Shown here piece after piece: positions 1 through 18,456 of a stretch of DNA of 18,456 nucleotides. The stretch spans positions 1 through 18,456 of IMG/VR virus record IMGVR_UViG_2713896795_000004. One strand, written 5' to 3'. Numbering within the stretch: position 1 is the first letter of the stretch; every line of letters begins with the position of its first letter. Source of the stretch: a virus. Its lineage: Duplodnaviria > Heunggongvirae > Uroviricota > Caudoviricetes. The notes below the pieces were generated by a model. It saw only the letters and a program-made list of their open reading frames with translations, was not told where the DNA came from and ran no database searches. A program made the translations under genes and the position numbers.

Positions 1-147
1 TCAAACACTCGCAAGCTCGTATTTGATCTTAGAAATAGATAACAACCAAACTTTGCCGAATTCCTCGCTATCGCTACGGAATCCCGCAAGCGTTCTCCCT
101 TCGCTTTGCTCGATCCAGTAGGTGTAGTTCTCATTACTACTATTCAT
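1..147 (-). CDS. hypothetical small protein (48 aa), uncertain
   Basis: Manual reverse-strand translation: ATG (complement of 145..147) to TGA (complement of 1..3), MNSSNENYTYWIEQSEGRTLAGFRSDSEEFGKVWLLSISKIKYELASV. GAGG motif 7 nt upstream of the ATG. Lies in the GC-richer left flank and is below the ORF-track size cut-off. No recognisable family. Confidence 0.2.
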   Translation of the reverse strand: MNSSNENYTYWIEQSEGRTLAGFRSDSEEFGKVWLLSISKIKYELASV

Positions 148-240
148 AGTGATTCCTCAAATATTCTGGGAGTTGGACGCGGCGACGAAGTGGAACGGGG
201 CGGCGGTGTCAGTCAGTACCGAACAATAAGGAAAAAGAAA

Positions 241-582
241 ATGAAATACATACACTCAATAATAAAAGATTGGGGATACAGTCATAACTATCACGATGCC
301 GTACTAAATCACTTTCCTAATCAGGGAATGTACATCTTTGCAAGTGGTGAACTATCTTTCATGTATGACTACTTCCATCATAGGTGGACTGAAAGAACTC
401 ATACAGAAGAAATAACACGTAAACTACTTACAGAGTTCACGGAAGAAATGATCTTTCAGGAATGTACATTATATGATGCAGAATTAGTTCAGAAGGTGCA
501 AAGAGAAATACTCAAACACCACAAAGGCCAAATCACTTATATATGGATACCAAATGAGAAACCTAAAAATCACATACAATAA
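241..582 (+). CDS. hypothetical protein (113 aa)
   Basis: Track ORF 106..582 begins at a TTG in GC-richer flank. The first ATG (241) follows AAGGA with about 10-nt spacing and coincides with the switch to AT-rich composition, so the start is placed at 241. No recognisable motifs. Confidence 0.45.
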   Translation: MKYIHSIIKDWGYSHNYHDAVLNHFPNQGMYIFASGELSFMYDYFHHRWTERTHTEEITRKLLTEFTEEMIFQECTLYDAELVQKVQREILKHHKGQITYIWIPNEKPKNHIQ

Positions 583-973
583 CCCACGAGGCTTGATATT
601 CAATGACCGAGTATTAGCCAGGCGTTATGCAGTCAACCGTAAAGGCATATTACTAAATAATACTATCAAATACGATCATCCCCCTGATTACTATCTAGGA
701 CTGAATGAGGCGGAATACTTCCAATTGTCCGTAGTGATGGGTGATCTGGACGAAATAATATTCATGTCAGACTGTATAATCAATGGAGTAAAAATCATGC
801 AAATAGAAATACTAAACAATAACCCACTAAATTTTAGAGCACGTATCAATGGTGGACTAGACTTATATATTCACCATAAAGATGGAGTTGTCGCAAGTCA
901 GAGAATCCCCAATATAGAGGCTATAAAGAGCTACGTAGCTGGTGGAATCCATAAGGACGTACAACGAACATAG
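554..973 (+). CDS. hypothetical protein (139 aa)
   Basis: ATG-initiated ORF overlapping the previous gene by 29 nt, suggesting translational coupling in one operon. No recognisable family. Confidence 0.45.
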   Translation: MRNLKITYNNPRGLIFNDRVLARRYAVNRKGILLNNTIKYDHPPDYYLGLNEAEYFQLSVVMGDLDEIIFMSDCIINGVKIMQIEILNNNPLNFRARINGGLDLYIHHKDGVVASQRIPNIEAIKSYVAGGIHKDVQRT

Positions 974-1442
974 AAGAGATTAAACGCATTCTAAGGGGCG
1001 GGCAGGACGTTATAGAGGAACTATCAGAAGATGAGAAACTACAGAAGAGTATCAATAAACATACTGATTCAATCGCTAAAGCAGCGAAAGCAAAAAAAAC
1101 ACGCAAGCCAAAAGCATAAAACAAAGAAGCCTCTCTACTGGTGGTTGTCTCATGCTGTAAATCGCCTGACAAATATTCATAGCTATATTGAGCATAAGGC
1201 ACACGCACACATAAAAGCGTATCTAAGGTAATTGATCGTCCGAATAATTACGGTACTGAATTTGAGTTCTCGAAACCAACCAACTATATCGGGGGTAATT
1301 TATAGTTTCATAGTTGCAGTAGTAGTTGGTGTACTATATGATTCTTTAGACGTACAAATAAAAATCCATTGATGAAGTATTGCAGTTTCAAAAAGAGTCT
1401 CAACAACTAATTCCTCACGGTAAATAACAGGAATAAGCCACA

Positions 1443-1972
<530 letters not shown>

Positions 1973-2038
1973 TAATGGAACGGTATTAATATGTTATGTG
2001 AAAGTTTAATAGTGGATTATGACAGTACTAATTACTGA

Positions 2039-2215
<177 letters not shown>

Positions 2216-2504
2216 TAATATATGAGATACTTTGAAGACCAAAAATTCACAATGGCAGTTGCGGTAAATAAGATTATTAAGGGAGTTTATGAGATTAAGA
2301 TGTTGTCTTTATCGATATAGACTTAGCAGGTGAAGCAGGAGACAAGCTAGATATACCTCCAAAGGAGGCAGAAACTATTTAGCTACTAAATGATTTAGTA
2401 CAAATTATAAAATAATAAGAAGAGGCTAAATTTTACTATTAATATTAAAATTAACTTGTAATATTAATAGAGATTATTCATTTAAAATAGTGAGAAATAT
2501 TTAT

Positions 2505-2574
2505 TAATGAGTAATGAGTAATGAGTAATGAGTAATGAGTAATGAGTAATGAGTAATGAGTAATGAGTAATGAG
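2505..2574. repeat. perfect heptanucleotide tandem repeat (TAATGAG)x10
   Basis: Read directly: ten uninterrupted copies of TAATGAG, 70 bp, in the non-coding region about 130 bp downstream of the 3' end of the OLD-like gene. Confidence 0.95.
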
Positions 2575-2662
2575 TATATATAAATAATGGATGTAATAAA
2601 GTAGATGTCATAAATGAGTTTTCTCTATATAATGTATAATTATCAAATTATATTTATTGTAT

Positions 2663-2690
2663 TATATGCCAGTACTAGTACTGGCATATA
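2663..2690. repeat. perfect 28-bp palindrome; possible bidirectional terminator or protein-binding site
   Basis: tatatgccagtactagtactggcatata is its own reverse complement. It sits 13 bp beyond the stop codon of the minus-strand OLD-like gene, flanked by A/T-rich sequence. Confidence 0.5.
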
Positions 2691-2702
2691 TGAATTTAAT
2701 AA

Positions 2703-4549
<1,847 letters not shown>

Positions 4550-4974
4550 TTATTTAATACCATTACCAGAGAGAGAATAAAAATAATATCTTCAAAACTG
4601 TGACATATGTTGTTCTTTTATGTTGATTGTTACATGGTTGATGGTTTTGTGTGTTGACTAATAGTTTTTCAGTAATTTATTTGATTAATATGACATATGG
4701 AAAAGTCATTGCGTACTGGGGTAAATACATCTTATAGAGTATTAATATGGTTTATTACTGTGAATACTGTAATGGAGTAAATCATTTATTTTCATTAGTA
4801 ATAGGTACTCCCGAAAATCTGGGTGATCGTGGAGTTTTCGCCGCGAATTATAAAAAATATCTATGAGATTTTTTTATAAGAACACGCAATATCAATAGCT
4901 AAAAGTAATAAGCACCGAAACATATATAAAATACCAATCAATTGAAAATGAATAAAAAGTGAATAGGAAATCAC

Positions 4975-5544
4975 ATGGCAAAAAATAAAGACGATGGAAC
5001 CCGTTACACATATACGGAAATTGCCGAAAGATTTGGCGTAGAAATTAGTACCGCTTCGCGTATCTGGTCTGGAAAAGGACTGGATATTAACTGGCCTAAA
5101 AAATTAGTGGATCAGTGGTTACTAGCGAACGTAATCGAACCTATGCGTAATGGCGATGTAAAAGGAATGATTCATAAAGCTACACTACGCAAACTAGAAG
5201 CAGAAGCAGACCTGAAAGAATTAGAACTACGTCAACAATCGGGTGAACTAATTCCCGTTGCAGTAGTACAGCAAACATTATCACAATACTTCTATCAATT
5301 AAGACAAGTATTAAGAAGTATTCCCACATCAAGTTATGTTGAACTATTTGAATCACAGGACGCATTAGAATTAAAAATTAAATTACAGGATAAAATAGAC
5401 CGCCAGTTAGAAGAGATTGGCAGCTATGAATATGAGGGAACATATGAAGAACAACTATCAGAAGATGATGAAGGTACTAACGAGGGCGGCGAAATCAATC
5501 CTACCACCGAAGAAACAACTACCAGCGGAATGGGTAGAGAATAA
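4975..5544 (+). CDS. terminase small subunit (Nu1-like, N-terminal HTH), 189 aa
   Basis: N-terminal HTH-like segment YTYTEIAERFGVEISTASRIW, coiled-coil middle, acidic C-terminus. Sits immediately upstream of and overlapping the large terminase. AGGAAA before the ATG. Confidence 0.6.
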   Translation: MAKNKDDGTRYTYTEIAERFGVEISTASRIWSGKGLDINWPKKLVDQWLLANVIEPMRNGDVKGMIHKATLRKLEAEADLKELELRQQSGELIPVAVVQQTLSQYFYQLRQVLRSIPTSSYVELFESQDALELKIKLQDKIDRQLEEIGSYEYEGTYEEQLSEDDEGTNEGGEINPTTEETTTSGMGRE

Positions 5545-7345
5545 CCTAGTCTTCCCAGACGGCGAGCTACAGGGGCAAAGGGTCAAATTATTTGAGTTCC
5601 AAAAAAAGCCCTTGAATGACATAGTAAATCCCCGTATTCGTAAAGTGGTACTCATGAGTAGTGCTCAACTTCTCAAAACAACTGTACTTCAGAATAGTAT
5701 GTACTACTTCCTGGCAAATGATCCAAGTAACATGATCTTTGCGGGTGCAACTGGCGGTACTACAAGTAAGTTCCGTACTGGTAAATGGCAGGCAGTCATA
5801 GAGGCATGTTCGGTACTAAAGAATCTAGTAAGTAATAAGAATGATAAGAACTTTACTAATAACGATAAGACACAACAAAATTTAGATGGTACTTTTACTT
5901 ACTTTCTAACATTGGGTAGTAGTGCACAACTTCGCGGCCTGACAGCACCTCGCATATTTCTTGATGAAATATCCAACGTGGACGCGAGCGGGGATGAAGG
6001 CAACCCCCTGAAGCTAGCAGAACAGCGTACAAAGGCTTTTAGTAATCCCCTTATTATGTGTTGTTCTACTCCCCTTGATGAACATGACCTGATTACACAA
6101 CAGTACGAACAAAGTAATAAACAGAAGTTTTATGTACCGTGTCCACACTGTAACCACTCTCACGAATTAGTTTTTGAAAACGTTAAGTTTGACTGGAAGA
6201 TTATAGAAGGCGGTCGCCGCCGTATTCCTGATGCCGACACTGCAAGGCTAGAATGTCCAAAGTGTAGTAATGAAATCACAGAAGCCGAACGTGTACGAAT
6301 GATTCGTAAAGGAGAATGGATTGCAACAGCACCAGAGATTAAGGATATAGCTGGCTATCATGTCTCCCGCTTGTACTCTCCTATCAACTCTATCAAATCA
6401 ATTGTTGCCGACTTTGCCGAAGCACATTATACATTTGACCTGGCATCATTCTATAACAACGTATTAGGACTGCCATATATTGATAAAGAGAATAGCGAGC
6501 ATGACTTAGTATTATTAGAGAATCTAAGAGATAGTGAAATTGATATTGAAAATATACCAGATGATGTACTAGGGATCGTAATGGGCGTGGACCAGCAGCT
6601 TGATAGGTTGGAAATAAGCACACTAGGAGTAAGTGAAAAGAATCTATATGTACTTGATCACCGTAGTATCTACTCAATTGACTGTACTAAAATCGAAGCC
6701 CCAGCATGGAATAAGTTAACGGCCTTTGCAAATCATCCATTTAAAACACGTTCAGGTAAACCATTGAAGGTACTAGCCGGATTTGTCGATAGTTCAAACG
6801 GCAACGCAACCAGTACCGTGTACCGTTATTGCTCTAACTCTACTATCTTTAAACCTATCAAGGGTGGTACATCAAATACTAACCCACTATTCAAAGGTAG
6901 TACGGCTGGTGGTCACTCCCTGATTAACCTTAACCTTAACGTTAACTTAGGCAAGACTAACGTTAGACAGTTATTAAACCGTGCTGTATCAGATAATGAA
7001 AATAGTAAGGAAGTACAGATTCACTTTAGCCATTCAGTACCAGATGATTACTTTATTCAGGTTACATCAGAGAAGCGAGTAATAAAGGCTGGGGCGTGGG
7101 TATGGGTGAAGAAGATTAGTAGTGCACGTAATGAAACCTTAGACTGTTTAAACTATGCATTAATATGTTTCCAGTGGTATCTATCTAAGTTAGGTAGTCA
7201 ACCATACCGCCAGTTAAGGGAATATAACGCTAAACAAAAAGAGAAAGCAGGACTAAATAAAGAAGTAAATACAGAAGAAGCACCAACTAAGCCAACTCCT
7301 AAGCGAGTAATAAGGCCGCGTAAGGGTGGTGGTTTCTTTAAATAA
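5417..7345 (+). CDS. terminase large subunit, lambda GpA family
   Basis: Recalled similarity to lambda gpA: PAEWVENNLVFP...FEFQKKPLN versus lambda TAVEWADANYYLP...LPFQRAIMN; Cys/His cluster YVPCPHCNHSHEL...CPKC versus lambda HVACPHCGEE; GVDQQLDRLEI versus GIDSQLDRYEM. The track start at 5417 is TTG; in-frame ATGs at 5426, 5432, 5444 and 5465 are alternatives, so the start is uncertain and overlaps the terS 3' end. Confidence 0.85.
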   Translation: MAAMNMREHMKNNYQKMMKVLTRAAKSILPPKKQLPAEWVENNLVFPDGELQGQRVKLFEFQKKPLNDIVNPRIRKVVLMSSAQLLKTTVLQNSMYYFLANDPSNMIFAGATGGTTSKFRTGKWQAVIEACSVLKNLVSNKNDKNFTNNDKTQQNLDGTFTYFLTLGSSAQLRGLTAPRIFLDEISNVDASGDEGNPLKLAEQRTKAFSNPLIMCCSTPLDEHDLITQQYEQSNKQKFYVPCPHCNHSHELVFENVKFDWKIIEGGRRRIPDADTARLECPKCSNEITEAERVRMIRKGEWIATAPEIKDIAGYHVSRLYSPINSIKSIVADFAEAHYTFDLASFYNNVLGLPYIDKENSEHDLVLLENLRDSEIDIENIPDDVLGIVMGVDQQLDRLEISTLGVSEKNLYVLDHRSIYSIDCTKIEAPAWNKLTAFANHPFKTRSGKPLKVLAGFVDSSNGNATSTVYRYCSNSTIFKPIKGGTSNTNPLFKGSTAGGHSLINLNLNVNLGKTNVRQLLNRAVSDNENSKEVQIHFSHSVPDDYFIQVTSEKRVIKAGAWVWVKKISSARNETLDCLNYALICFQWYLSKLGSQPYRQLREYNAKQKEKAGLNKEVNTEEAPTKPTPKRVIRPRKGGGFFK

Positions 7346-7356
7346 GGAAAAATAAA

Positions 7357-7848
7357 ATGGCAATAGTTCGCAAAGTAACCCTAAGAGGCGATATCTTTAA
7401 AGGCGAGACTATTACATTCGACTACCCCGCAGGATCGGAAATTGATTTGATTGATCCTAACGGGGTAAAGACTTCATACACATACCCTTTCCCAGCTATT
7501 GATACTAGTAACTGGGATGCAGGTGTCTGGACTGCAATTATTAACAGTACCGTAGCGTATGGCGTACAACAATTCGAAGTAATAGATCCAACTTCAAAGG
7601 CGTCCGAATATAACGACCTGATGCAAATCATTAAAGATATTGATCAGATCATCATGGACAGAATTAAAGGCGGTGGTGTACTAAGTCAATCAATCCAAAA
7701 TAAATCATTAACATATGAAAGTAGTGAAATACTTATGAAGTTACGCCCTGTTTATGTCAGTCGTGCAAATGATTTACTTTCGGATATGAAAGGCTTTAAT
7801 ACTGGATGCCCTATTAAATCAATTACTACATTTAGGAGATCTCGTTAA
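7357..7848 (+). CDS. hypothetical protein between terminase and portal (163 aa); possible head-completion or accessory head protein
   Basis: AAGGA RBS and ATG start; its stop overlaps the portal start (TAATG). Function inferred from position only (lambda has gpW at the equivalent place). Confidence 0.45.
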   Translation: MAIVRKVTLRGDIFKGETITFDYPAGSEIDLIDPNGVKTSYTYPFPAIDTSNWDAGVWTAIINSTVAYGVQQFEVIDPTSKASEYNDLMQIIKDIDQIIMDRIKGGGVLSQSIQNKSLTYESSEILMKLRPVYVSRANDLLSDMKGFNTGCPIKSITTFRRSR

Positions 7849-9350
7849 TGTTCGGATGGAATAAAAAGAAAGTAGAAGAACCTAAACAAAAAGTTTTAGT
7901 ACAGAAGCCAGTGAAGCTAATGAAGAACAACCCTATGAAGCGTGCAATGTCTTCCCTGAATCTAGGATCTTCTAGTCCTGTTATCTCCTTTGGTTTCACG
8001 GGTGGTAATCAGGCAGGTAATATTAACGCCATCATTAACCGTACTCTACCTGTTATGGTTGCCGTGAGTCGTGAACTCTCGATTAAGAATGGTATTGTTA
8101 AGAAATATGTTTCTACTAACTCAGCAGGTGTAACAGGTGCGGATGGCCTATACATTCGTCCATGTACTCACTCTTCTGATAGTGAACAGGTTAACCAGTC
8201 AATCGATAAACAATTAGAAGATGCCTTCTATGCATGGGCGGAAGATCCTAAAGCCTTTTCACGTTGCGGTACTCTGGATATTAGTACCTTCCAACGTCTA
8301 GTAGAACGTACTCGTTCAGTAGATGGAGATTGTTTCATTCGTATTCACACTAAACCAGGTGAACTACCACAGGTTGAGATCATCGATTCAATGCGTATCT
8401 CTACCTATGAGAACCAGCTACTACCATCAGGTAACTATATTAGTAATGGTATCGAATTTGATATTAATACTAACCGTCCTGTAGCGTACTGGGTAACACG
8501 TTATAACCCTATCATGTATAACTATATGATTGGAGAACGTGAACGCGTACCAGCAGATGAAATTCTACACCTGTTTCAACAGGACTACCCAACGCAGCAA
8601 CGCGGGATACCTGATGTACATTCCGGTACTGAAAAGTTAAAAGAGCTAGAAGAGTTTATGTCAGCGGCAATTACTTCCCGTAAGGTTGCAGCGTCCGCAA
8701 TGGCATTTATCACTAATCCAGATAGTGACGATGTTCAGCTACTGACTGATGACAGTGTTTCGTACTATGATCAAGACTATCTAAATCCGGCTGCAATCGT
8801 AGAACTACAAGCAGGACAAGATATTAAAACAGTAAACCCAACTCAAACCACAGATGGAATTGATGAGTTTATTAATAACCAATTAATGATGATTGCAATG
8901 GGCTTGGATATTACAAAACAATCACTAACATCAGATACTAGTAATGCTTCATTCAGTGCAGCAAAACTGACTGATAAATTACAACAATCAACATTTAAAA
9001 GCCGCACTAATGCTTTAATTGTTTCGGTACTAAAACCTCTTTATATTGCATGGCTAAAATCTGCAATGCTAAATAGTAGTACGTTAAGCAATTTAAATTT
9101 TAGTGATTTTAATAAATTAACCCATGCACAATATGTACAGACTCGTCAAATCTCCCTTGATCCATTAAAAGACCTTCAAACCGAAGTATTAGCAATTGAT
9201 AACGGTTTAAAGAGTAAGGCAATGGTAATTTCAGAGATGGGATACGATCCTGTTATCGTCATGGAAGAGATAAAAAAGGAAAACAAGGAAAATGGAATTG
9301 AACCTGAACAAGAACCAGATGAGGGCGATCAATCTAACGCAGATCAATAA
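7848..9350 (+). CDS. portal protein (lambda gpB-like), 500 aa
   Basis: Canonical position after the large terminase, appropriate size, AGGAGA RBS. Weak recalled similarity to the lambda gpB region around ...NPAAIVELQAGQDIKTV...MIAMGLDITKQSL. Acidic C-terminal tail. Confidence 0.7.
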   Translation: MFGWNKKKVEEPKQKVLVQKPVKLMKNNPMKRAMSSLNLGSSSPVISFGFTGGNQAGNINAIINRTLPVMVAVSRELSIKNGIVKKYVSTNSAGVTGADGLYIRPCTHSSDSEQVNQSIDKQLEDAFYAWAEDPKAFSRCGTLDISTFQRLVERTRSVDGDCFIRIHTKPGELPQVEIIDSMRISTYENQLLPSGNYISNGIEFDINTNRPVAYWVTRYNPIMYNYMIGERERVPADEILHLFQQDYPTQQRGIPDVHSGTEKLKELEEFMSAAITSRKVAASAMAFITNPDSDDVQLLTDDSVSYYDQDYLNPAAIVELQAGQDIKTVNPTQTTDGIDEFINNQLMMIAMGLDITKQSLTSDTSNASFSAAKLTDKLQQSTFKSRTNALIVSVLKPLYIAWLKSAMLNSSTLSNLNFSDFNKLTHAQYVQTRQISLDPLKDLQTEVLAIDNGLKSKAMVISEMGYDPVIVMEEIKKENKENGIEPEQEPDEGDQSNADQ

Positions 9351-11154
9351 TGCAATTGATGAAGCTGATAGAACTGTAGAACTCTCCTTTGCCTCAGAAA
9401 TTCCAGTAGTACGCGACATTAAAGGGACTCTCTATAATGAGATCCTTTTATGCAGTCCTGAAAACGTAGACTTAAGCCGTCTTAATGACGGTGCACCTGT
9501 ACTAGTAGAACATGATGCAATGCGTCAAGTTGGTATAGTTGAGAATGCTCGCGTAGATATGGATAAAGTTTGCCGTGCTACTGTACGTTTTAGTGCACTT
9601 GGAACAGCAAATACTATCTTCGGTATGATCTTAGAAGGTATTCGCCCTAAAGTGTCCGTAGGTTATAACATCTTAGATTATCGTATTGATGGTAATAACC
9701 TAATTGTTTCAAAATGGGAACCCTATGAAATATCCAGTGTTTCGCAGCCAGCGGACAACTCAGTTGGGGTGGGAAGATCACTAAATAGTAATGAAGAAAT
9801 CACACTAGAGGATCTACCCAAAATGGAGCAAGAACAAAAAGAAGAACTAGTACAGGAAGTTGAAGTTATTAAGGAAGTACAGGAAGAAGAAGTACAAGCC
9901 GAAGTAATCGAAGAAGAAGTAGTAGTTCAGGAAGAATCAGTAGAAGTAGTAGAAGAACCGGAAGTAATTGAGGAAGTACAGGAAGTACAACCTGAATTAG
10001 TAGAAGAACGTTCTATTGCAATTACTGATATTCAAGAAAGCATAAATAAAGAAGTAGAAGCAAATCGTATTCGCGAACTTCAATCTATTTCTTTGGTACT
10101 AGGTGTTAGTACAGAAGAAGCAATTAACAACGGTGTAAGCGTAGAAGACTTTAAACGCTCACTAAATAAAGATAATAAATCAATTGATAAGGATATCAAA
10201 AAAATGGAAAAGAAATCTCTAATTAACGAAGGTCTACGTAGTCTAAAAGGTGAAACTCATGATCTAGAAACCTTCGAAAAAGGTGCACGCGGTTATAATG
10301 CAGACCTAAACGCTATGGTACGTTCTACCGCTGATACTACTTCTACTGTAACCGCAGCAGGTCTAGTAAAAGAAGAACTAGCAGACGCGTATATTCGTCA
10401 ACTACTCGCAGCTACTGTACTGGGCCAACTAGATGTAACTGTTTTTGGTGGCCTAGCGGGACGCGGCAATTTCTCTATCCCACGTGCTAAAGGTATGAAC
10501 CCAGCAGCTAAGTTTTACAATGAAGATGAAGCAGTATCCGACGGCTTCGAAACCTTCGATAAGATCACTCTAAAGCCTCGCATGTTCGCAGCAGGTATCA
10601 AGATCACTAAAGCAATGCTACTAAGCAACGCAGCTACCGAACGTTATGTTACCGACGAGCTATTACGCCAATGTTCTAACGGTCTAGAGTCCGCAGTATT
10701 TGCACAAATCGCTACTACTGTACCAGTACAGCAAACCGCTGTATCCGGTCAAGTATCCGAAGCAGACGTACAGAAAGCTATCGAAGCTATCTCCGCGAAA
10801 AACGTTGATATCAATCGTTGTGTTGCTATCGTGCATCCTTCTATGCTCGCTAAACTACGTCAAACCGCGGTATTGAATAACACCGCAGCAGTTGCAATGG
10901 TAGCTGGTCATCGTTATGACATGTGGCTAAACGACGAAGTACGCGTAATTGAATCTACTTTCGTAGCAGCAGATACTATTCTAATTGGTGACTTCTCTGA
11001 ACTAATTTTCGCTAACTGGAACGAAGGTCAAGAACTAGATTTTGATGATACTACTTACCGTGCAGCACAAACTATCGCTATCAGAAGTTTTCAGTACCTC
11101 GACGTAGCTATTGCACACGAAGAAGGATTTGTACTACTACAACTAAAACCATAA
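9292..11154 (+). CDS. fused prohead protease / acidic scaffold-like linker / HK97-fold major capsid protein (620 aa)
   Basis: N-terminal domain with candidate catalytic His in LVEHD (His74, nt 9511..9513) and Ser-containing segments. Acidic E/V/Q-rich repeat linker (aa 178-240). C-terminal domain with HK97-type MCP pattern: VAIVHPSMLAKL...MWLNDEVRVIESTFVAADTILIGDFSE compared with recalled HK97 gp5 IVLNPRDWHNI...MWGLPVVPT...FTVGGFD. Start may instead be the ATG at 9319. Confidence 0.7.
   Translation: MELNLNKNQMRAINLTQINNAIDEADRTVELSFASEIPVVRDIKGTLYNEILLCSPENVDLSRLNDGAPVLVEHDAMRQVGIVENARVDMDKVCRATVRFSALGTANTIFGMILEGIRPKVSVGYNILDYRIDGNNLIVSKWEPYEISSVSQPADNSVGVGRSLNSNEEITLEDLPKMEQEQKEELVQEVEVIKEVQEEEVQAEVIEEEVVVQEESVEVVEEPEVIEEVQEVQPELVEERSIAITDIQESINKEVEANRIRELQSISLVLGVSTEEAINNGVSVEDFKRSLNKDNKSIDKDIKKMEKKSLINEGLRSLKGETHDLETFEKGARGYNADLNAMVRSTADTTSTVTAAGLVKEELADAYIRQLLAATVLGQLDVTVFGGLAGRGNFSIPRAKGMNPAAKFYNEDEAVSDGFETFDKITLKPRMFAAGIKITKAMLLSNAATERYVTDELLRQCSNGLESAVFAQIATTVPVQQTAVSGQVSEADVQKAIEAISAKNVDINRCVAIVHPSMLAKLRQTAVLNNTAAVAMVAGHRYDMWLNDEVRVIESTFVAADTILIGDFSELIFANWNEGQELDFDDTTYRAAQTIAIRSFQYLDVAIAHEEGFVLLQLKP
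9823..10011. repeat. low-complexity acidic coding repeat (GAAGAA/GTAGAA-rich) inside the capsid ORF
   Basis: Translates to MEQEQKEELVQEVEVIKEVQEEEVQAEVIEEEVVVQEESVEVVEEPEVIEEVQEVQPELVEE; the DNA is built from imperfect gaagta/gaagaa units. Confidence 0.7.
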
Positions 11155-11166
11155 GGTACTTTCACT

Positions 11167-11487
11167 ATGAGGCATTTTACTAGCAATCAAATTGATTCTA
11201 CTTTTCTAAATGCCTTTGGTGAACCTATCACAATTAACGGGGCGACGTTCAAAGCTATTTTGGACAATCGCCCCGTAGTCATAGATAGCGGTACTGAAGG
11301 ACTAGTAGAAAGTACAGAAACATTTCTATCAGTGAAGACTGACGATCTAACTACTTTCAGTATCGCAATTGATTCCGAAGTAGTAGTACAGGGTACAAAT
11401 TACACTGTATACAATATCTATAATGATTTGAGCGGTATTTGTGAAGTTTACATAAGACCATCAACAATTAATAATTACGGGTGGTAA
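11167..11487 (+). CDS. hypothetical protein (106 aa); head-tail connector/adaptor candidate by position
   Basis: ATG ORF directly after the capsid gene, in the size range of HK97-like head-tail connector proteins. No motif evidence. Confidence 0.4.
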   Translation: MRHFTSNQIDSTFLNAFGEPITINGATFKAILDNRPVVIDSGTEGLVESTETFLSVKTDDLTTFSIAIDSEVVVQGTNYTVYNIYNDLSGICEVYIRPSTINNYGW

Positions 11488-11488
11488 T

Positions 11489-11884
11489 ATGGGACTATTA
11501 AGCGACGTACAAAAGACAATTAGAACCAGTCTGAATAATATCATGCCAATTCGAAAGGCAATGAATATCCAGGCAGGTAAAGATCTATTCATCTTAGTAT
11601 CAGTAAATCAGACATATTCACCAACCAACTTTGGCACACAACGCCAGACAGGAACATTCGATTTCCAATTTCTCCTAGTACCGGAACCATCAGTACAACT
11701 TCCCGCCGATTCCTACGGTACTATATTCGAATACTTCCGTACTAATACTATTAAAGAGTTTAAAGATAATAACGTCACTCTACTTTCTTATGAGTTTCAA
11801 GATAGCGAACAGGTAACAGATCCAACTACTGGCTATCAATCGTTATCGTTTGCAATAAATATTGTAGCAACTCAAAAACCATAA
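11489..11884 (+). CDS. hypothetical protein (131 aa); head-tail joining candidate by position
   Basis: ATG 1 nt after the previous stop (tightly coupled). Position-based call only. Confidence 0.4.
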   Translation: MGLLSDVQKTIRTSLNNIMPIRKAMNIQAGKDLFILVSVNQTYSPTNFGTQRQTGTFDFQFLLVPEPSVQLPADSYGTIFEYFRTNTIKEFKDNNVTLLSYEFQDSEQVTDPTTGYQSLSFAINIVATQKP

Positions 11885-11896
11885 GGAATATAGATA

Positions 11897-11924
11897 ATGA
11901 GTGATAATATTTTTACTGGTAGTG
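11897..11924 (+). pseudogene. 5' stub of a gene cut by IS2 (9 codons, MSDNIFTGS)
   Basis: AAGGAA RBS at 11883..11888, ATG at 11897, reading frame runs straight into the IS2 terminal inverted repeat at 11925. Confidence 0.35.
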
Positions 11925-11935
11925 TGGATTTGCCC

Positions 11936-12841
11936 CTATATTTCCAGACACCTGTTATCACTTAACCCATTACTGGCCCGCTGCCGTAGATATTCCCGTG
12001 GCGAGCGATAACCCAGTGCACTATGCGGATGCCATTCGTTATAATGCTCGAACGCCTCTGCAAGGTTCTTTGCTGCCGTTAACCCGTCTGGTTTGGGCAT
12101 GATACTGATGTAATCACGCTTTATCGTTTTCACGAAGCTCTCTGCTATGCCGTTACTCTCCGGACTCCGCACCGCCGTGTTCTTCGGTTCAAGTCCCAAC
12201 ATCCGGGCGAACTGGCGTGTTTCATTAGCCCGGTAGCATGAACCATTATCCGTCAGCCACTCCACTGGAGATGTCGGAAGCTCGCTGCCGAAGCGGCGTT
12301 CCACCGCTCCCAGCATGACGTCCTGTACTGTTTCACTGTCGAAGCCGCCCGTAGTGACCGCCCAGTGCAGTGCCTCACGGTCACAGCAGTCCAGCGCGAA
12401 CGTGACTCGCAGTTTTTCTCCGTTATCACAGCGGAACTCGAACCCGTCAGAGCACCATCGTTGATTGCTTTCTTTCACGGCCACTTTGCCAGTATGTGCC
12501 CGTTTCGATGGCGGTACAGCGGTTTTTCGCTCAAGCAACAGCGCATTCTGGCGCATGATCCGGTAAACACGTTTGGCATTGATAGCAGGCATACCATCAA
12601 GTTCGGCCTGTCTGCGAAGCAGCGCCCATACCCGACGATAACCATACGTGGGCAGCTCTCCGATAACATGGTGTATACGGAGAAGCACATCCGTATCATC
12701 TGAGTGACGGCTGCAGCGACCATCTTTCCAGTCATCGGTTCGTCTGAGAATGACGTGCAACTGCGCACGCGACACCCGGAGACAACGGCTGACTAAGCTT
12801 ACTCCCCATCCCCGGGCAATAAGGGCGCGTGCGCTATCCAC
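11936..12841 (-). CDS. insD: IS2 transposase OrfB (InsD), DDE integrase-like catalytic domain, 301 aa
   Basis: Matches recalled InsD sequence. Overlaps insC in the -1 frame at the AAAAAAG slippery site, so the InsCD fusion would arise by programmed frameshift. GTG start. Confidence 0.9.
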
Positions 12842-13164
12842 TTTTTTGCACGCCCATATTCAACGGCTTCTTTAAGGAGTTCATTTTCCATCGTTTTTTT
12901 GCCGAGCAGGCGCTGAAGTTCTTTAATCTGCTTCATGGCAGCAGCAAGTTCAGAGGCAGGAACGACCTGTTCTCCTGCGGCCACAGCAGTAAGACTTCCC
13001 TCCTGGTATTGCTTGCGCCATAGAAATAACTGGCTGGCTGCCACACCGTGTTGCCGGGCAACAAGGGAGACCGTCATTCCCGGTTCAAAGCTCTGCTGAA
13101 CAATAGCGATCTTTTCCTGTGTAGTACGCCGTCTGCGTTTCTCCGGTCCTAAGACATCAATCAT
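12799..13164 (-). CDS. insC: IS2 transposase OrfA (InsC), HTH DNA-binding protein, 121 aa
   Basis: Translation from the ATG at 13164 matches recalled InsC ([56 protein letters not shown]...). The track ORF extends further 5' to an upstream alternative start. Confidence 0.9.
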
Positions 13165-13256
13165 CTGTTCTCCAATGACTAGTCTAAAAACTAGTATTAA
13201 GACTATCACTTATTTAAGTGATATTGGTTGTCTGGAGATTCAGGGGGCCAGTCTAG

Positions 13257-13784
13257 AAAGGTAAATGCATCCCACGAGATTTAAAGGTTAACGAAACAAA
13301 CGCTGACTATCTTTTCCGTAAGTTCGGTGAACTTGAATCAAAACTCAACGAGCAGCGTGAGTATTACGAGGGCGTTATCTCGGATGGGAGTAAGCGTATT
13401 GCTGAACTGGAGAAAAGCGAAGAGCAACTCATCAACGAGCGTGACCATGCTGAGTCTGCTTTAGCTGATATGTACTTTGCAGCAACCGGTAACAGGCCGG
13501 AGTGGAGCAACTGGTTCGGCTTTTCAGATGCTGTCGATGCCGTGGTTGACAGAATAGCTGATTTAGAAGCTAAACAGCCATCGCCGGTAGTGCCGGATAA
13601 TGCATCAGGGTCGCTTGCTTATGCTTACAAAGAGCTTACGCCTGAGATTATGCGCGGTCATATCGCTGTATTCGAGCGATATGGAATAGCCCCAAACGAT
13701 AGCATTACCACAATTCAGGCACTGCGAATCGCGCTGGATGGTATAGAGCGGAGCAACGCCATGCTTCAGGGGAAAGGAGAGTGA
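13257..13784 (+). pseudogene. N-terminally truncated coiled-coil protein of the lambdoid early-accessory region (possibly Ea22-like), cut by IS2
   Basis: Reading frame is open from the first base after IS2 (stop TAG lies inside the IS2 end at 13254..13256) through 13784, with no start codon near the IS boundary. Coiled-coil-like LESKLNEQREYYEGVISDGSKRIAELEKSEEQLINE. The Ea22 assignment is from memory and weak. Confidence 0.45.
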
Positions 13785-13785
13785 T

Positions 13786-14301
13786 ATGGCGTTAACACAC
13801 AGCGAACTCTGTCAGATTGCGTACAAGTTCCTTAAGCGCAACGGGTTCAAGGTTTGTTTTCATGACCGCTTTATAGCTGTAACCAGTACCGGAGAACAGC
13901 CAGATGCTATGGGATTCAGAAATTCAGCATCATGCCTGATAGAGGCGAAGTGTTCTCGTGCTGACTTGTTGGCAGATAGAAAAAAGCGTTTTCGTAAAAA
14001 TCCGTCTCTTGGAATGGGCGACTGGCGATTCTTTATTAGTGAGCCGGGGATTATTTCAATTGAGGATTTACCACCTGGCTGGGGATTACTTCACGTTGTT
14101 AACGGAAGAGTACGGAAAGTACATGGGTGGCCAAAGGGCAATTGCTGTTGGGGTAATCCTGACGATAAGCCATTTACTGGAAATAAGCAGGTTGAATGCG
14201 ATTACATGTTATCTGCATTAAGGCGCATGGAGTTGAGAGGGCACCTTAATGAAATATATGACGGTGTAATTGTTAATAAGAAAGAAGGAAACGCGGCATG
14301 A
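13786..14301 (+). CDS. hypothetical protein with PD-(D/E)xK-like nuclease motif (171 aa)
   Basis: AAAGGAGAG RBS, ATG 1 nt after the previous stop. Motif ...EQPDAMGF...(12 aa)...LIEAKCSRADL resembles the PD...(D/E)xK core of restriction-endonuclease-fold proteins. Family not assigned. Confidence 0.5.
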   Translation: MALTHSELCQIAYKFLKRNGFKVCFHDRFIAVTSTGEQPDAMGFRNSASCLIEAKCSRADLLADRKKRFRKNPSLGMGDWRFFISEPGIISIEDLPPGWGLLHVVNGRVRKVHGWPKGNCCWGNPDDKPFTGNKQVECDYMLSALRRMELRGHLNEIYDGVIVNKKEGNAA

Positions 14302-15137
14302 CCACTATTACCAAAGAGCGACTGCTGACAATCAAGCAGTGGCGCGAAACATACGGACCTGGTAGCAACGTTGTACTGCCAGCAGAAGAAGCGGAAGAAC
14401 TGGCACGAATTGCTCTGGCATCGCTGGAAGCAAAACCAATAGGTGCTTTCCACATTGCAGAACAGCAGGTCGATGGCACAAGTGACTACATCAAGGATGG
14501 GGAGTGGCCTATTGATAACGGGATAATTGAAGTATACGCCGCTCCGCCAGTGCCGGTAGTACCTGGGGAAATTGCTGATGATTTAATGGAGAAATTACCG
14601 AAAAGTGATGCATGGGCTAATGGGTTTCGTGGTGGCTGGAACGCCTGCCGCGCAGTCATGCTTCAGTCCGGAAACTTTCGGAAAATCCCGGAAGCGTCAA
14701 CCAGCTCTCCGGTAACTCCGCCTCTTTTGCCTGGTGGTTTCACCATTGAGGATGCGAAGGAGTTACATGAAGACCTGGTTCGCAGCCACATAAGCCAGGC
14801 TTTAAGTGGCGAAAAGATGAAAAAGAAAGATCGCGAGGCTGATTTGCGCTGGATTCATGGCGTAATAGTTCAGGCTGCGTGGTTTGTAAAGGCATCACTG
14901 GAGCAGAATGCACTATCGGGCAACTCTCCGGTAACTCCGGATAGTTGGATAAGCTGTAGTGAGCGAATGCCGGAAGAAACGGGTGACATTATTGTTGTTT
15001 CGGATGGCATTGTAATGTCAGGGATTTCTTATTCTCGTCGTGACGGGTTCTATATGGCCGCATTGGAGTACGACGACGACGAACCAATTGACGGTGTAAC
15101 CCACTGGATGCCGCTGCCAGAACCGCCGCAGGGGTGA
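14298..15137 (+). CDS. phage protein with C-terminal DUF551-like domain (279 aa)
   Basis: ATGA start/stop overlap with the previous gene. C-terminal SERMPEE...VTHWMPLPEPP matches the recalled DUF551 signature (ER[ML]PE ... W-x-PLP-x-PP) common in lambdoid early-region accessory genes. Confidence 0.55.
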   Translation: MTTITKERLLTIKQWRETYGPGSNVVLPAEEAEELARIALASLEAKPIGAFHIAEQQVDGTSDYIKDGEWPIDNGIIEVYAAPPVPVVPGEIADDLMEKLPKSDAWANGFRGGWNACRAVMLQSGNFRKIPEASTSSPVTPPLLPGGFTIEDAKELHEDLVRSHISQALSGEKMKKKDREADLRWIHGVIVQAAWFVKASLEQNALSGNSPVTPDSWISCSERMPEETGDIIVVSDGIVMSGISYSRRDGFYMAALEYDDDEPIDGVTHWMPLPEPPQG

Positions 15138-15203
15138 AATGATGCTTGGCCTGAAGTATTTTATGTAATTGGTATTGCTATATTTTTATCTGGGGATAAA
15201 CGA

Positions 15204-15446
15204 ATGTTCTCTCTGATTCAACGTGGTCAGATATACACCGATAGCGCTGGCTATCCAGTAAAAATCATTCGTAGTACTGATCACTCAGTATTCTTCAAGA
15301 GGATGGATGGCTATCCTGGAAGAGTGTGCATCAGAAAATTCAATAATTTATTCGAACACATTGATCACAGAGAATATCACCAGATCCTGGCTGAAACAGA
15401 GCAGGAGAACCATCTGAAAAAATTACGTGCCATGCAAAGGAGATAA
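15204..15446 (+). CDS. hypothetical lambdoid early-region protein (80 aa)
   Basis: ATG ORF in the position occupied by ea-type genes in lambda; no motif evidence. Confidence 0.45.
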   Translation: MFSLIQRGQIYTDSAGYPVKIIRSTDHSVFFKRMDGYPGRVCIRKFNNLFEHIDHREYHQILAETEQENHLKKLRAMQRR

Positions 15447-15526
15447 ACCGGTAAAGGTGTTCGCGATAAAGGTGAATATCGGCAATGAATAACAATCCTC
15501 GAACTCGCGGGGATTTCTTTTATCTG

Positions 15527-15553
15527 AACTCGCTACGGCGAGTTTTGTTTTAT
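15527..15553 (+). terminator. putative intrinsic terminator
   Basis: 7-bp stem AACTCGC / GCGAGTT with 4-nt loop TACG, followed by TTGTTTTAT. Confidence 0.35.
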
Positions 15554-15564
15554 GGAGATGATAA

Positions 15565-15732
15565 ATGCACTTCCGAGTCACAGGTGAATGGAATGGAGAG
15601 CCATTCAACAGAGTTATCGAGGCAGAGAACATCAACGACTGCTATGACCACTGGATGCTGTGGGCGCAGATAGCACATGCAGACGTAACCAATATTCGAA
15701 TTGAAGAACTGAAAGAACACCAATCCGCCTGA
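15565..15732 (+). CDS. small hypothetical protein (55 aa), same size and spacing as the small ORF just upstream of xis in phage lambda
   Basis: Manual translation MHFRVTGEWNGEPFNRVIEAENINDCYDHWMLWAQIAHADVTNIRIEELKEHQSA. GGAGA RBS 7 nt before the ATG; ends 39 nt before xis. Below the ORF-track size cut-off. Confidence 0.45.
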   Translation: MHFRVTGEWNGEPFNRVIEAENINDCYDHWMLWAQIAHADVTNIRIEELKEHQSA

Positions 15733-15747
15733 TGGCGGCTTTTTCTT
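15725..15747 (+). terminator. putative intrinsic terminator overlapping the stop of the 55-aa ORF
   Basis: CCGCC-TGAT-GGCGG hairpin followed by CTTTTTCTT. Confidence 0.35.
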
Positions 15748-15771
15748 GCGTGTAATTGCGGAGACTTTGCG

Positions 15772-15990
15772 ATGTACTTGACACTTCAGGAGTGGAACGC
15801 ACGCCAGCGACGCCCAAGAAGCCTTGAAACAGTTCGTCGATGGGTGCGCGAATGCAGGATATTCCCTCCTCCGGTTAAGGATGGAAGAGAGTATCTGTTC
15901 CACGAATCAGCGGTAAAGGTTGACTTAAATCGACCAGTAACAGGTAGCCTTTTGAAGAGGATCAGAAATGGGAAGAAGGCGAAGTCATGA
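15772..15990 (+). CDS. xis: excisionase Xis (lambda type), 72 aa
   Basis: MYLTLQEWNARQRRPRSLETVRRWVRECRIFPPPVKDGREYLFHESAVKVDLNRPVTGSLLKRIRNGKKAKS matches recalled lambda Xis. Overlaps the int start as in lambda. Confidence 0.95.
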   Translation: MYLTLQEWNARQRRPRSLETVRRWVRECRIFPPPVKDGREYLFHESAVKVDLNRPVTGSLLKRIRNGKKAKS

Positions 15991-17038
15991 GCGCCGGGAT
16001 TTACCCCCTAACCTTTATATAAGAAACAATGGATATTACTGCTACAGGGACCCAAGGACGGGTAAAGAGTTTGGATTAGGCCGAGACAGGAGGATAGCAA
16101 TCACTGAAGCTATACAGGCCAACATTGAGTTATTTTCAGGACACAAACACAAGCCTCTGACAGCGAGAATCAACAGTGATAATTCTGTTACGTTACATTC
16201 ATGGCTTGATCGCTACGAAAAAATCCTCGCCAGCAGAGGAATCAAGCAGAAGACACTCATAAATTACATGAGCAAAATTAAAGCAATAAGGAGGGGTCTG
16301 CCTGATGTTTCACTTGAAGACATCACCACAAAAGAAATTGCGGCAATGCTCAATGGATACATAGACGAGGGCAAGGCGGCGTCAGCCAAGTTAATCAGAT
16401 CAACACTGAGCGATGCATTCCGAGAGGCAATAGCTGAAGGCCATATAACAACAAACCCGGTCGCTGCCACTCGCGCAGCAAAATCAGAGGTAAGGAGATC
16501 AAGACTTACGGCTGACGAATACCTGAAAATTTATCAAGCAGCAGAATCATCACCATGTTGGCTCAGACTTGCAATGGAACTGGCTGTTGTTACCGGGCAG
16601 CGAGTTGGTGATTTATGCGAAATGAAGTGGTCTGATATCGTAGATGGATATCTTTATGTCGAGCAAAGCAAAACAGGCGTAAAAATTGCCATCCCTACAA
16701 CATTGCATGTTGATGCTCTCGGGATATCAATGAAGGAAACACTTGGTAAATGCAAAGAGATTCTTGGCGGAGAAACCATAATTGCATCTACTCGTCGTGA
16801 ACCGCTTTCATCCGGCACAGTATCAAGGTATTTTATGCGCGCACGAAAAGCATCAGGTCTTTCCTTCGAAGGGGATCCGCCAACCTTTCACGAGTTGCGC
16901 AGTTTGTCTGCAAGACTCTATGAGAAGCAGATAAGCGATAAGTTTGCTCAACATCTTCTCGGGCATAAGTCGGACACCATGGCATCACAGTATCGTGATG
17001 ACAGAGGCAGGGAGTGGGACAAAATTGAAATCAAATAA
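15968..17038 (+). CDS. int: tyrosine integrase Int (lambda type), 356 aa
   Basis: Near-identical to recalled lambda Int over its whole length (MGRRRSHERRDLPPNLYIRNNGYYCYRDPRTGKEFGLGRDRR ... HELRSLSARLYEKQISDKFAQHLLGHKSDTMASQYRDDRGREWDKIEIK). Catalytic R...H-x-x-R...Y context present. Confidence 0.97.
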   Translation: MGRRRSHERRDLPPNLYIRNNGYYCYRDPRTGKEFGLGRDRRIAITEAIQANIELFSGHKHKPLTARINSDNSVTLHSWLDRYEKILASRGIKQKTLINYMSKIKAIRRGLPDVSLEDITTKEIAAMLNGYIDEGKAASAKLIRSTLSDAFREAIAEGHITTNPVAATRAAKSEVRRSRLTADEYLKIYQAAESSPCWLRLAMELAVVTGQRVGDLCEMKWSDIVDGYLYVEQSKTGVKIAIPTTLHVDALGISMKETLGKCKEILGGETIIASTRREPLSSGTVSRYFMRARKASGLSFEGDPPTFHELRSLSARLYEKQISDKFAQHLLGHKSDTMASQYRDDRGREWDKIEIK

Positions 17039-17133
17039 TGATTTTATTTTGACTGATAGTGACCTGTTCGTTGCAACAAATTGATAAGCAATGCTTTTTT
17101 ATAATGCCAACTTAGTATAAAAAAGCAGGCTTC
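17039..17133. other. attL: lambda P' arm plus 15-bp core (reverse complement of GCTTTTTTATACTAA at 17112..17126) joined to the bacterial B arm
   Basis: Sequence TTTTATTTTGACTGATAGTGACCTGTTCGTTGCAACAAATTGATAAGCAATGCTTTTTTATAATGCCAACTTAGTATAAAAAAGCAGGCTTCA matches the recalled lambda attL/P' arm, with the core directly followed by host sequence leading into ybhC. Confidence 0.9.
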
Positions 17134-17172
17134 AACGGATTCATTTTTCTATTTCATAGCCCGGAGCAACCT

Positions 17173-18456
17173 GTGAACACATTTTCAGTTTCCCGTCTGG
17201 CGCTGGCATTGGCTTTTGGCGTGACGCTGACCGCCTGTAGCTCAACACCGCCCGATCAACGTCCTTCTGATCAAACCGCGCCTGGTACCTCTTCTCGCCC
17301 GATTCTGTCGGCAAAAGAAGCGCAGAATTTCGATGCTCAACACTATTTTGCATCCCTGACACCAGGTGCGGCAGCGTGGAATCCTTCCCCGATTACCCTG
17401 CCTGCGCAACCTGACTTTGTTGTCGGCCCGGCGGGTACTCAAGGTGTAACGCATACCACGATTCAGGCGGCGGTAGATGCGGCAATTATCAAGCGTACCA
17501 ACAAGCGCCAGTATATTGCCGTGATGCCTGGTGAGTATCAGGGAACGGTGTATGTCCCTGCCGCTCCGGGTGGAATTACTCTATACGGTACAGGTGAAAA
17601 ACCGATTGATGTGAAGATTGGGCTTTCCCTTGATGGTGGCATGAGCCCTGCCGACTGGCGTCACGACGTCAACCCGCGCGGCAAATATATGCCAAGTAAA
17701 CCGGCGTGGTATATGTACGATAGCTGCCAGAGTAAACGCAGCGACAGTATCGGTGTTCTCTGCTCTGCGGTCTTCTGGTCACAAAACAATGGCCTGCAAC
17801 TGCAAAACCTGACCATCGAAAACACGCTGGGCGATAGCGTAGATGCGGGTAACCATCCGGCGGTGGCACTGCGTACTGATGGCGACAAAGTGCAGATCAA
17901 TAACGTCAACATTCTCGGTCGTCAGAACACCTTCTTTGTCACCAACAGCGGTGTGCAGAACCGTCTGGAAACGAATCGCCAGCCGCGTACGCTGGTGACC
18001 AACAGCTATATTGAAGGGGATGTGGATATCGTTTCTGGTCGCGGCGCAGTGGTGTTCGATAACACCGAATTCCGCGTGGTGAACTCCCGTACCCAGCAAG
18101 AAGCGTATGTGTTTGCACCGGCTACGCTGTCCAACATTTACTACGGTTTCCTCGCCGTAAACAGCCGTTTCAATGCTTCCGGTGATGGCGTGGCGCAACT
18201 GGGCCGCTCGCTGGATGTTGATGCCAATACCAACGGTCAGGTAGTGATCCGTGATAGCGCCATCAACGAAGGTTTTAACACGGCGAAACCGTGGGCCGAT
18301 GCGGTGATTTCCAATCGTCCATTCGCGGGTAACACCGGCAGCGTTGATGATAACGACGAAGTACAGCGTAATCTGAATGACACTAACTACAACCGCATGT
18401 GGGAATACAATAACCGCGGCGTGGGTAGCAAAGTGGTTGCAGAGGCGAAGAAGTAG
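17173..18456 (+). CDS. ybhC: YbhC, pectinesterase-fold outer-membrane lipoprotein (putative acyl-CoA thioesterase), 427 aa, complete
   Basis: GTG start; lipobox LTAC in MNTFSVSRLALALAFGVTLTACSS; sequence matches recalled E. coli YbhC. Known chromosomal neighbour of attB-lambda. Composition is host-like. Confidence 0.9.
   Translation: MNTFSVSRLALALAFGVTLTACSSTPPDQRPSDQTAPGTSSRPILSAKEAQNFDAQHYFASLTPGAAAWNPSPITLPAQPDFVVGPAGTQGVTHTTIQAAVDAAIIKRTNKRQYIAVMPGEYQGTVYVPAAPGGITLYGTGEKPIDVKIGLSLDGGMSPADWRHDVNPRGKYMPSKPAWYMYDSCQSKRSDSIGVLCSAVFWSQNNGLQLQNLTIENTLGDSVDAGNHPAVALRTDGDKVQINNVNILGRQNTFFVTNSGVQNRLETNRQPRTLVTNSYIEGDVDIVSGRGAVVFDNTEFRVVNSRTQQEAYVFAPATLSNIYYGFLAVNSRFNASGDGVAQLGRSLDVDANTNGQVVIRDSAINEGFNTAKPWADAVISNRPFAGNTGSVDDNDEVQRNLNDTNYNRMWEYNNRGVGSKVVAEAKK

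Follow-up and report, generated by a model that had tools for sequence, protein, structure and literature searches.

The lambda-type xis and int genes adjoining ybhC in E. coli HMLN-1 very probably mark the end of an ordinary lambdoid prophage at attB-lambda, and their appearance as an orphan module is due to an IS2 junction with a second prophage. The DNA analysed here, referred to as the window, is a stretch of 18,456 nucleotides (321695..340150 of the 364,558-bp contig LFKC01000009.1; GCA_001077955.1) from HMLN-1, a phylogroup B2 'translocating' clinical isolate (PMC4552563). Int-mediated exchange of attP and attB between ybhC and ybhB would have generated a B-O-P' structure beside int, and IS2 would then sit in an Ea22-like gene, beyond which the contig leads into the head-gene end of an unrelated prophage in msyB. 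The remainder of the lambdoid prophage, including attR, would be elsewhere whether the IS2 junction is an assembly mis-join or a genuine inversion.

The int-proximal prophage end at attB-lambda

The region to the right of IS2 is the normal int-proximal (attL) end of a lambda-family prophage at the classic attB-lambda. An initial annotation had placed a lambda-type int/xis/attL at attB-lambda by ybhC at 15772..17133, and identity to lambda and K-12 shows this placement to be accurate. The components are as follows:

15772..15990, plus strand: xis, excisionase, 72 aa; 71/72 identical to lambda Xis (G59S)
15968..17038, plus strand: int, lambda-type tyrosine integrase, 356 aa; 350/356 identical to lambda Int
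17035..17111, minus strand: attL P' arm, 100% identical to lambda, including the C' side of the core
17035..17044, minus strand: P'3 site of the P' arm
17046..17055, minus strand: P'2 site of the P' arm
17056..17065, minus strand: P'1 site of the P' arm
17074..17086, minus strand: H' IHF site of the P' arm
17112..17126, minus strand: 15-bp common core GCTTTTTTATACTAA, present as a single copy in the window
17127..17172, minus strand: bacterial B arm and ybhC upstream region, laid out as the left half of K-12 attB
17173..18456, plus strand: ybhC, 427 aa, the host gene on the gal side of attB-lambda

Both the xis and int open reading frames are intact, with xis positioned just 5' of int and overlapping it by 23 nt. 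Xis matches the Pfam family Exc (PF07825, 3.9e-41) and has the layout expected of a 72-aa winged-helix excisionase. Int is a 356-codon open reading frame with one terminal stop, and Pfam matches to Arm-DNA-bind_1 (PF09003, 7e-33), PF02899/PF22022 and Phage_integrase (PF00589, 2.1e-40) account for arm-binding, core-binding and catalytic domains, all of which are present. Alignment with lambda Int (NC_001416) identifies the substitutions A114V, P115S, H164P, A245T, I248V and D260G, none of them inactivating, and the six catalytic residues (R212, K235, H308, R311, H333 and Y342) are all in place. The description of Int and Xis as essentially lambda proteins is thus borne out. The closest phage integrases are those of HK106, JEP4, 2B8 and Huey (99.2% identical), followed by those of HK97 and 434 (98.9%), and from the 99.2% identity to Int of viable phages, together with the wide distribution of the allele, we infer that the protein would be active in recombination at lambda att sites.

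From the int stop codon through the P' arm to the core (17036..17126, 91 bases) the sequence matches lambda at every position. The match to lambda ends at 17127 and that to K-12 attB/ybhC begins at 17108, such that the two meet exactly over the shared core, as expected for a B-O-P' structure; the core has the P' arm, with P'1 to P'3 and H', on one side and the B arm of attB on the other. The core and P' arm are therefore intact and joined directly to host DNA, as had been proposed.

The lambda int/xis/attL module at attB-lambda is already known, and is a textbook arrangement present in ~35% of complete E. coli genomes. Of 5,426 complete E. coli genomes, 1,920 match a 351-bp probe for the int/attL/ybhC junction (16950..17300) along its whole length, and the remainder match its host half only. 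That attB is occupied in HMLN-1, a further point of the initial annotation, is in this light true and trivial. In an assembly collection, 197 blocks contain the exact Int protein, which adjoins ybhC in all ten of the contigs listed among these; the ten include the source contig itself and one short remnant. Eight of the nine listed contigs from other assemblies have a normal lambdoid early-left/immunity region (RecT or Erf, kil, cIII, N, cI, cro, cII, O). Fifteen of the junction-probe matches fall on plasmid records, which suggests that lambda-type int/attP modules are also carried on plasmids or phage-plasmids; in the 103-kb plasmid NZ_CP026403.1 the match extends no further than the int 3' end and the larger part of the P' arm.

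Between IS2 and xis the following lambdoid features are present:

13256..15771, plus strand: lambdoid early-left accessory genes, mosaic
13257..13784, plus strand: Ea22-like ORF lacking ~13 N-terminal codons
plus strand: further accessory ORFs of 171 aa, 279 aa (DUF551 protein) and 80 aa (DUF4222 protein)
15565..15732, plus strand: homologue of lambda orf-55
15746..15759, plus strand: TTGC-N6-TTGC at the start of xis, which we take from established knowledge of lambda to be the cII box of the pI promoter

Matches to lambda itself are confined to 15489..17126 (1,638 bp, 97.9%, 34 mismatches) and 76 bp of ea22, and the segment 13256..15488 is a generic lambdoid mosaic, segments of which recur in many prophages and in phages including HK106 and JEP4. 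The ~3.9 kb (13256..17133) originally assigned to lambda is thus lambda-derived in 15489..17126 and the 76 bp, and lambdoid in a broader sense over 13256..15488.

The interval 15740..15812, which includes the cII box, does not differ from lambda at any position. In lambda, transcription from pL with N antitermination normally provides Xis and Int together, and pI requires cII and yields Int only. A sigma-70 consensus scan from IS2 to xis identified no plus-strand promoter, two terminator-like hairpins (15494..15545 and 15725..15738) lie within the same interval, and the IS2 end nearest xis is the one bearing the inward-facing transposase promoter. These features together hint that xis is probably silent in cis in the contig as assembled. 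Neither Rfam nor tRNA scanning gave any match in the window.

The AT-rich prophage in msyB

The DNA to the left of IS2 had been thought, together with IS2, to replace what would be exo-bet-gam-N-cI. This proved incorrect, as the AT-rich DNA is the left half of an independent prophage in msyB, with the following features:

1..11924, plus strand: left half of an unrelated ~36% GC prophage, ROD-9 of strain HMLN-1
2703..4523, minus strand: Old-type OLD nuclease, 606 aa (AAA_15, 9e-38; OLD-like_TOPRIM, 2.6e-14; PADLOC Old, 1.5e-74)
4975..5544, plus strand: terS, small terminase
ending at 7345, plus strand: gpA-type terL, large terminase
7357..7848, plus strand: connector
7848..9350, plus strand: lambda-family portal
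9292..11154, plus strand: protease/capsid fusion, 620 aa (phrog_617, phrog_4523, PF05065)
11167..11487, plus strand: FII-like head-tail protein
plus strand: 131-aa ORF following the FII-like protein
11898..11924, plus strand: tail-fibre gene, first 27 nt only

Early ORFs are also present. To the left of the window lie opgC, opgG (+), opgH (+), yceK (+) and msyB (-), followed by the gene of a large serine recombinase (620 aa); the match to K-12 breaks off 9 nt into msyB, the chromosomal anchor of the AT-rich prophage. The serine recombinase and the msyB boundary identify the AT-rich element as a separate prophage with its own integrase and attachment site. ROD-9 was described as a 36% GC prophage of HMLN-1 at 317516..333578 of contig 9 (PMC4552563, Table 2), and this interval runs exactly from the serine recombinase to position 11884 of the window.

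The AT-rich DNA is collinear, with 86% nucleotide identity, with complete prophages that continue into tail and lysis genes; relatives include a prophage of E. coli WGI31CT (at yegD, with a serine recombinase) and CP057354. This collinearity with full-length prophages that have tails and lysis genes led us to reject two other identities for the AT-rich module, a defence island and a satellite that forms capsids.

Several other features of this prophage can be recorded. Its nearest relatives occupy other sites, yegD among them. The prophage is siphovirus-like and extends over 5261..9447 of the 9.4 kb to the left of the window (L005), and it provides a replacement N-terminus for msyB (MYFYATLEEA vs MTMYATLEEA in K-12). 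The OLD nuclease, a single gene encoding an N-terminal ABC-type ATPase and a C-terminal TOPRIM domain as in P2 Old-type nucleases, is on the opposite strand between the early genes and terS, is flanked by ORF-poor stretches of ~30% GC (1975..2702 and 4524..4974), and is probably a prophage-borne defence moron. The 620-aa fusion has a protease/scaffold-like N-terminal half joined to an HK97-fold major capsid domain, and its gene overlaps the end of the portal gene. A 139-aa protein and the 131-aa protein were found only in HMLN-1 within a collection of 15 billion proteins.

These boundaries bear on whether the lambda-type genes could act on the element as assembled. An excisable prophage would have a second core with a P arm, as P-O-B', next to ybhB; over the ~28 kb formed by the window and the adjoining 9.4 kb on its left (L005), neither a second copy of the 15-bp core nor homology to the lambda P arm was found, and the other boundary is msyB. 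The unit from msyB to ybhC as assembled is thus not excisable by Int/Xis. The initial annotation had anticipated an attR at the far end of the island and possible excision by Int/Xis, but that end is bounded by msyB/opgH rather than ybhB/bio, and an attL x attR reaction is impossible for the unit as assembled.

The same observations weigh against a stand-alone 3.9-kb lambda remnant, the rest of which was replaced by IS2 and AT-rich DNA to give an island that may be bounded by attR and excisable. The window does contain no lambda immunity or replication genes, as noted at the outset, and true short remnants are known: in GCA_052767485.1 (L012), core copies at 3895..3909 and 11145..11159 form an attL and a P-O-B' attR by ybhB that are 7.2 kb apart with IS1 between them, and the decayed prophage of APEC O78 has an IS2. 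However, the AT-rich DNA is bounded on its outer side by msyB and a serine recombinase and not by ybhB/bio, ~28 kb includes neither a second core nor P-arm homology, and the AT-rich DNA consists of head genes collinear with full prophages at other sites; we therefore regard a stand-alone remnant as most improbable. The contents of the L012 remnant are a P22-type tailspike gene, mnt/arc, IS1, a DUF4222 gene, xis and int; its P arm is 88.6% identical to lambda and its P' arm 100%.

The remainder of the lambdoid prophage (immunity, replication, late genes and attR) is probably ROD-7 on the same contig, an assignment drawn from just its size, GC content, position at the contig start, and a roughly fitting distance. 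ROD-7 is a prophage at 1..35407 of contig 9 with 46% GC and 51 genes (PMC4552563, Table 2). It is 277 kb from opgG, and the distance from ybhB to opgG is 302 kb in K-12 and 351 kb in CU42ET-1, values that fit a position of ROD-7 at attB without deciding it. The earlier impression that only 3.9 kb of prophage is left reflects the IS2 breakpoint and the edge of the window, as the 35.4-kb ROD-7 lies on the same contig.

The IS2 joint and its origin

The element that separates the two prophages is:

11925..13255, minus strand: IS2, 1,331 bp, with intact orfA and orfB (HTH_Tnp_1 and rve) and terminal inverted repeats

This copy is 99.6% identical to other copies of IS2. Its flanks are TAGTG on the left and GAAAG on the right, and no 5-bp target duplication is present. 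On the left IS2 abuts the tail-fibre gene of the msyB prophage, which in uninterrupted relatives runs on after AGTG, and on the right it abuts the Ea22-like gene of the lambdoid prophage, ~38 nt into that gene and 2.5 kb upstream of xis. IS2 is a recombinant or chimeric joint between two prophages, and not a simple insertion.

The host flanks reveal the geometry of this joint. In K-12, ybhC (-) is at 805,998..807,281, opgG (+) is at 1,109,335 and msyB ends at 1,114,181, and in the contig ybhC and opgG are both on the plus strand; on the K-12 map the two host flanks are thus 307 kb apart and in opposite relative orientation. In the complete genome of CU42ET-1, in which attB is empty, the flank probes are on opposite strands and 351 kb apart. 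The reversed orientation on both maps indicates that the joint is of the inversion type, corresponding to ~307 kb of the reference map. The ancestral orientations deduced for the two IS2 copies are inverted, such that homologous inversion is mechanistically possible.

A joint with these properties could have arisen during assembly or in the chromosome. Short-read assemblies are known to mis-join at IS repeats. With two IS2 copies the assembly graph permits four pairings of the four flanks, and 101-bp reads, being shorter than the 1.33-kb IS2, normally cannot choose among them. HMLN-1 was sequenced using MiSeq 101-bp paired reads and assembled with SPAdes 3.0.0 into 59 contigs (PMC4552563). We consider it on balance probable, and more likely than an inversion, that SPAdes threaded one path through a two-copy IS2 to give a mis-join. 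The 3.9 kb, IS2 and the 35.4-kb ROD-7 would then sum to ~40.6 kb, a normal lambdoid size with one IS2 insertion, and attR would be ~37 kb away in direct orientation, in which case the prophage may be fully excisable. A point against a mis-join is that SPAdes normally halts at unresolved repeats, so that crossing a full IS2 somewhat favours either a real joint or a single-copy IS2.

The right end of contig 9 is presumably at the lysT-lysQ tRNA cluster, judging from its K-12 position. Contig 10 (1..17530, 37% GC) and contig 8 (1..20003, 46% GC) begin in prophage-like DNA that is attributed to tRNA-Lys sites (PMC4552563, Table 2). Taken together, these suggest that several contig ends are repeat breaks near this region. 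We do not claim ROD-10 (37% GC, at the start of contig 10) as the tail half of the msyB prophage, as it has been attributed to a tRNA-Lys site.

Alternatively, the joint may be real, with inverted IS2 copies in the Ea22-like and tail-fibre genes having recombined to invert ~310-330 kb and split both prophages; the K-12 equivalent of the inverted segment is 0.807-1.114 Mb. We view this as possible but doubtful. In its favour, the arrangement of the flanks is precisely what an inversion joint would show, no target duplication accompanies IS2, and the deduced ancestral copies are inverted as homologous inversion requires. In addition, the assembler crossed IS2, which usually needs read-pair support, and the far end of the contig, at which the reciprocal joint would be expected, is likewise occupied by a prophage. 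However, neither IS2 junction is present in any of the 5,426 complete E. coli genomes, 101-bp reads alone cannot span the 1.33-kb IS2, and a de Bruijn graph allows the path even if it is false. The reciprocal junction was also not found, as a homologue search for the tail half using the tail-tube protein of a relative returned no HMLN-1 contig. Moreover, inversions of ~0.3 Mb lying wholly within one replichore, as this one would, are rare in natural E. coli and usually counter-selected. Such probability as is left beyond a mis-join and an inversion falls to other histories.

If the inversion is real, then attR would be ~0.3 Mb away and inverted relative to attL, and Int/Xis would invert the intervening DNA rather than excise it. 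It is conceivable, and in our view improbable, that an intact attL, a surviving inverted attR and functional Int/Xis could together reversibly flip a 300-kb segment, with cII, N and pL supplied by the other half of the prophage or by another lambdoid phage.

Significance and comparison with known systems

The module itself is of little import, as it is textbook and found in about one third of complete E. coli genomes. The lesson is rather for the reading of windows such as this, in which an apparent orphan integrase corresponds to an IS2 breakpoint joining two prophages in a short-read draft. If real, the joint would represent an IS-driven inversion within one replichore that disabled two prophages at once, and would have turned a phage excision system into a potential inversion system, which would be mildly interesting with regard to prophage domestication and chromosome architecture.

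Decayed remnants such as that in GCA_052767485.1 and that of APEC O78 resemble the window in having an int/xis/attL end with IS elements inside, although the former has attR by ybhB in direct orientation, unlike the contig of the window, which has no attR within reach. The joint is similar to IS-mediated inversions and short-read mis-joins in lacking a target duplication and in having flanks that derive from loci 307 kb apart and inverted, but its reciprocal junction was not found, and an inversion here would be asymmetric and lie within one replichore, which is unusual among natural isolates.

Further parallels are lambda and its relatives. The window shares with lambda the ybhC-ybhB integration site, the gene order, the xis/int overlap and an unaltered pI/cII box; identity to lambda amounts to 98.3% in Int, 98.6% in Xis and 100% over the P' arm and core. 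The differences from lambda are six conservative substitutions in Int and one in Xis, and the presence upstream of orf-55 of DUF4222, DUF551 and 171-aa ORFs instead of ea8.5 and ea22. Lambdoid phages that use the lambda att site (HK97, 434, HK106, JEP4, 2B8, mEp332) have Int proteins 98.9-99.2% identical to that of the window, and the attB-lambda prophages in ~35% of E. coli genomes have an identical attL/ybhC junction and an early-left region that is likewise mosaic. Unlike in those lambdoids, the early-left region of the window is cut by an IS2 that leads into a different prophage.
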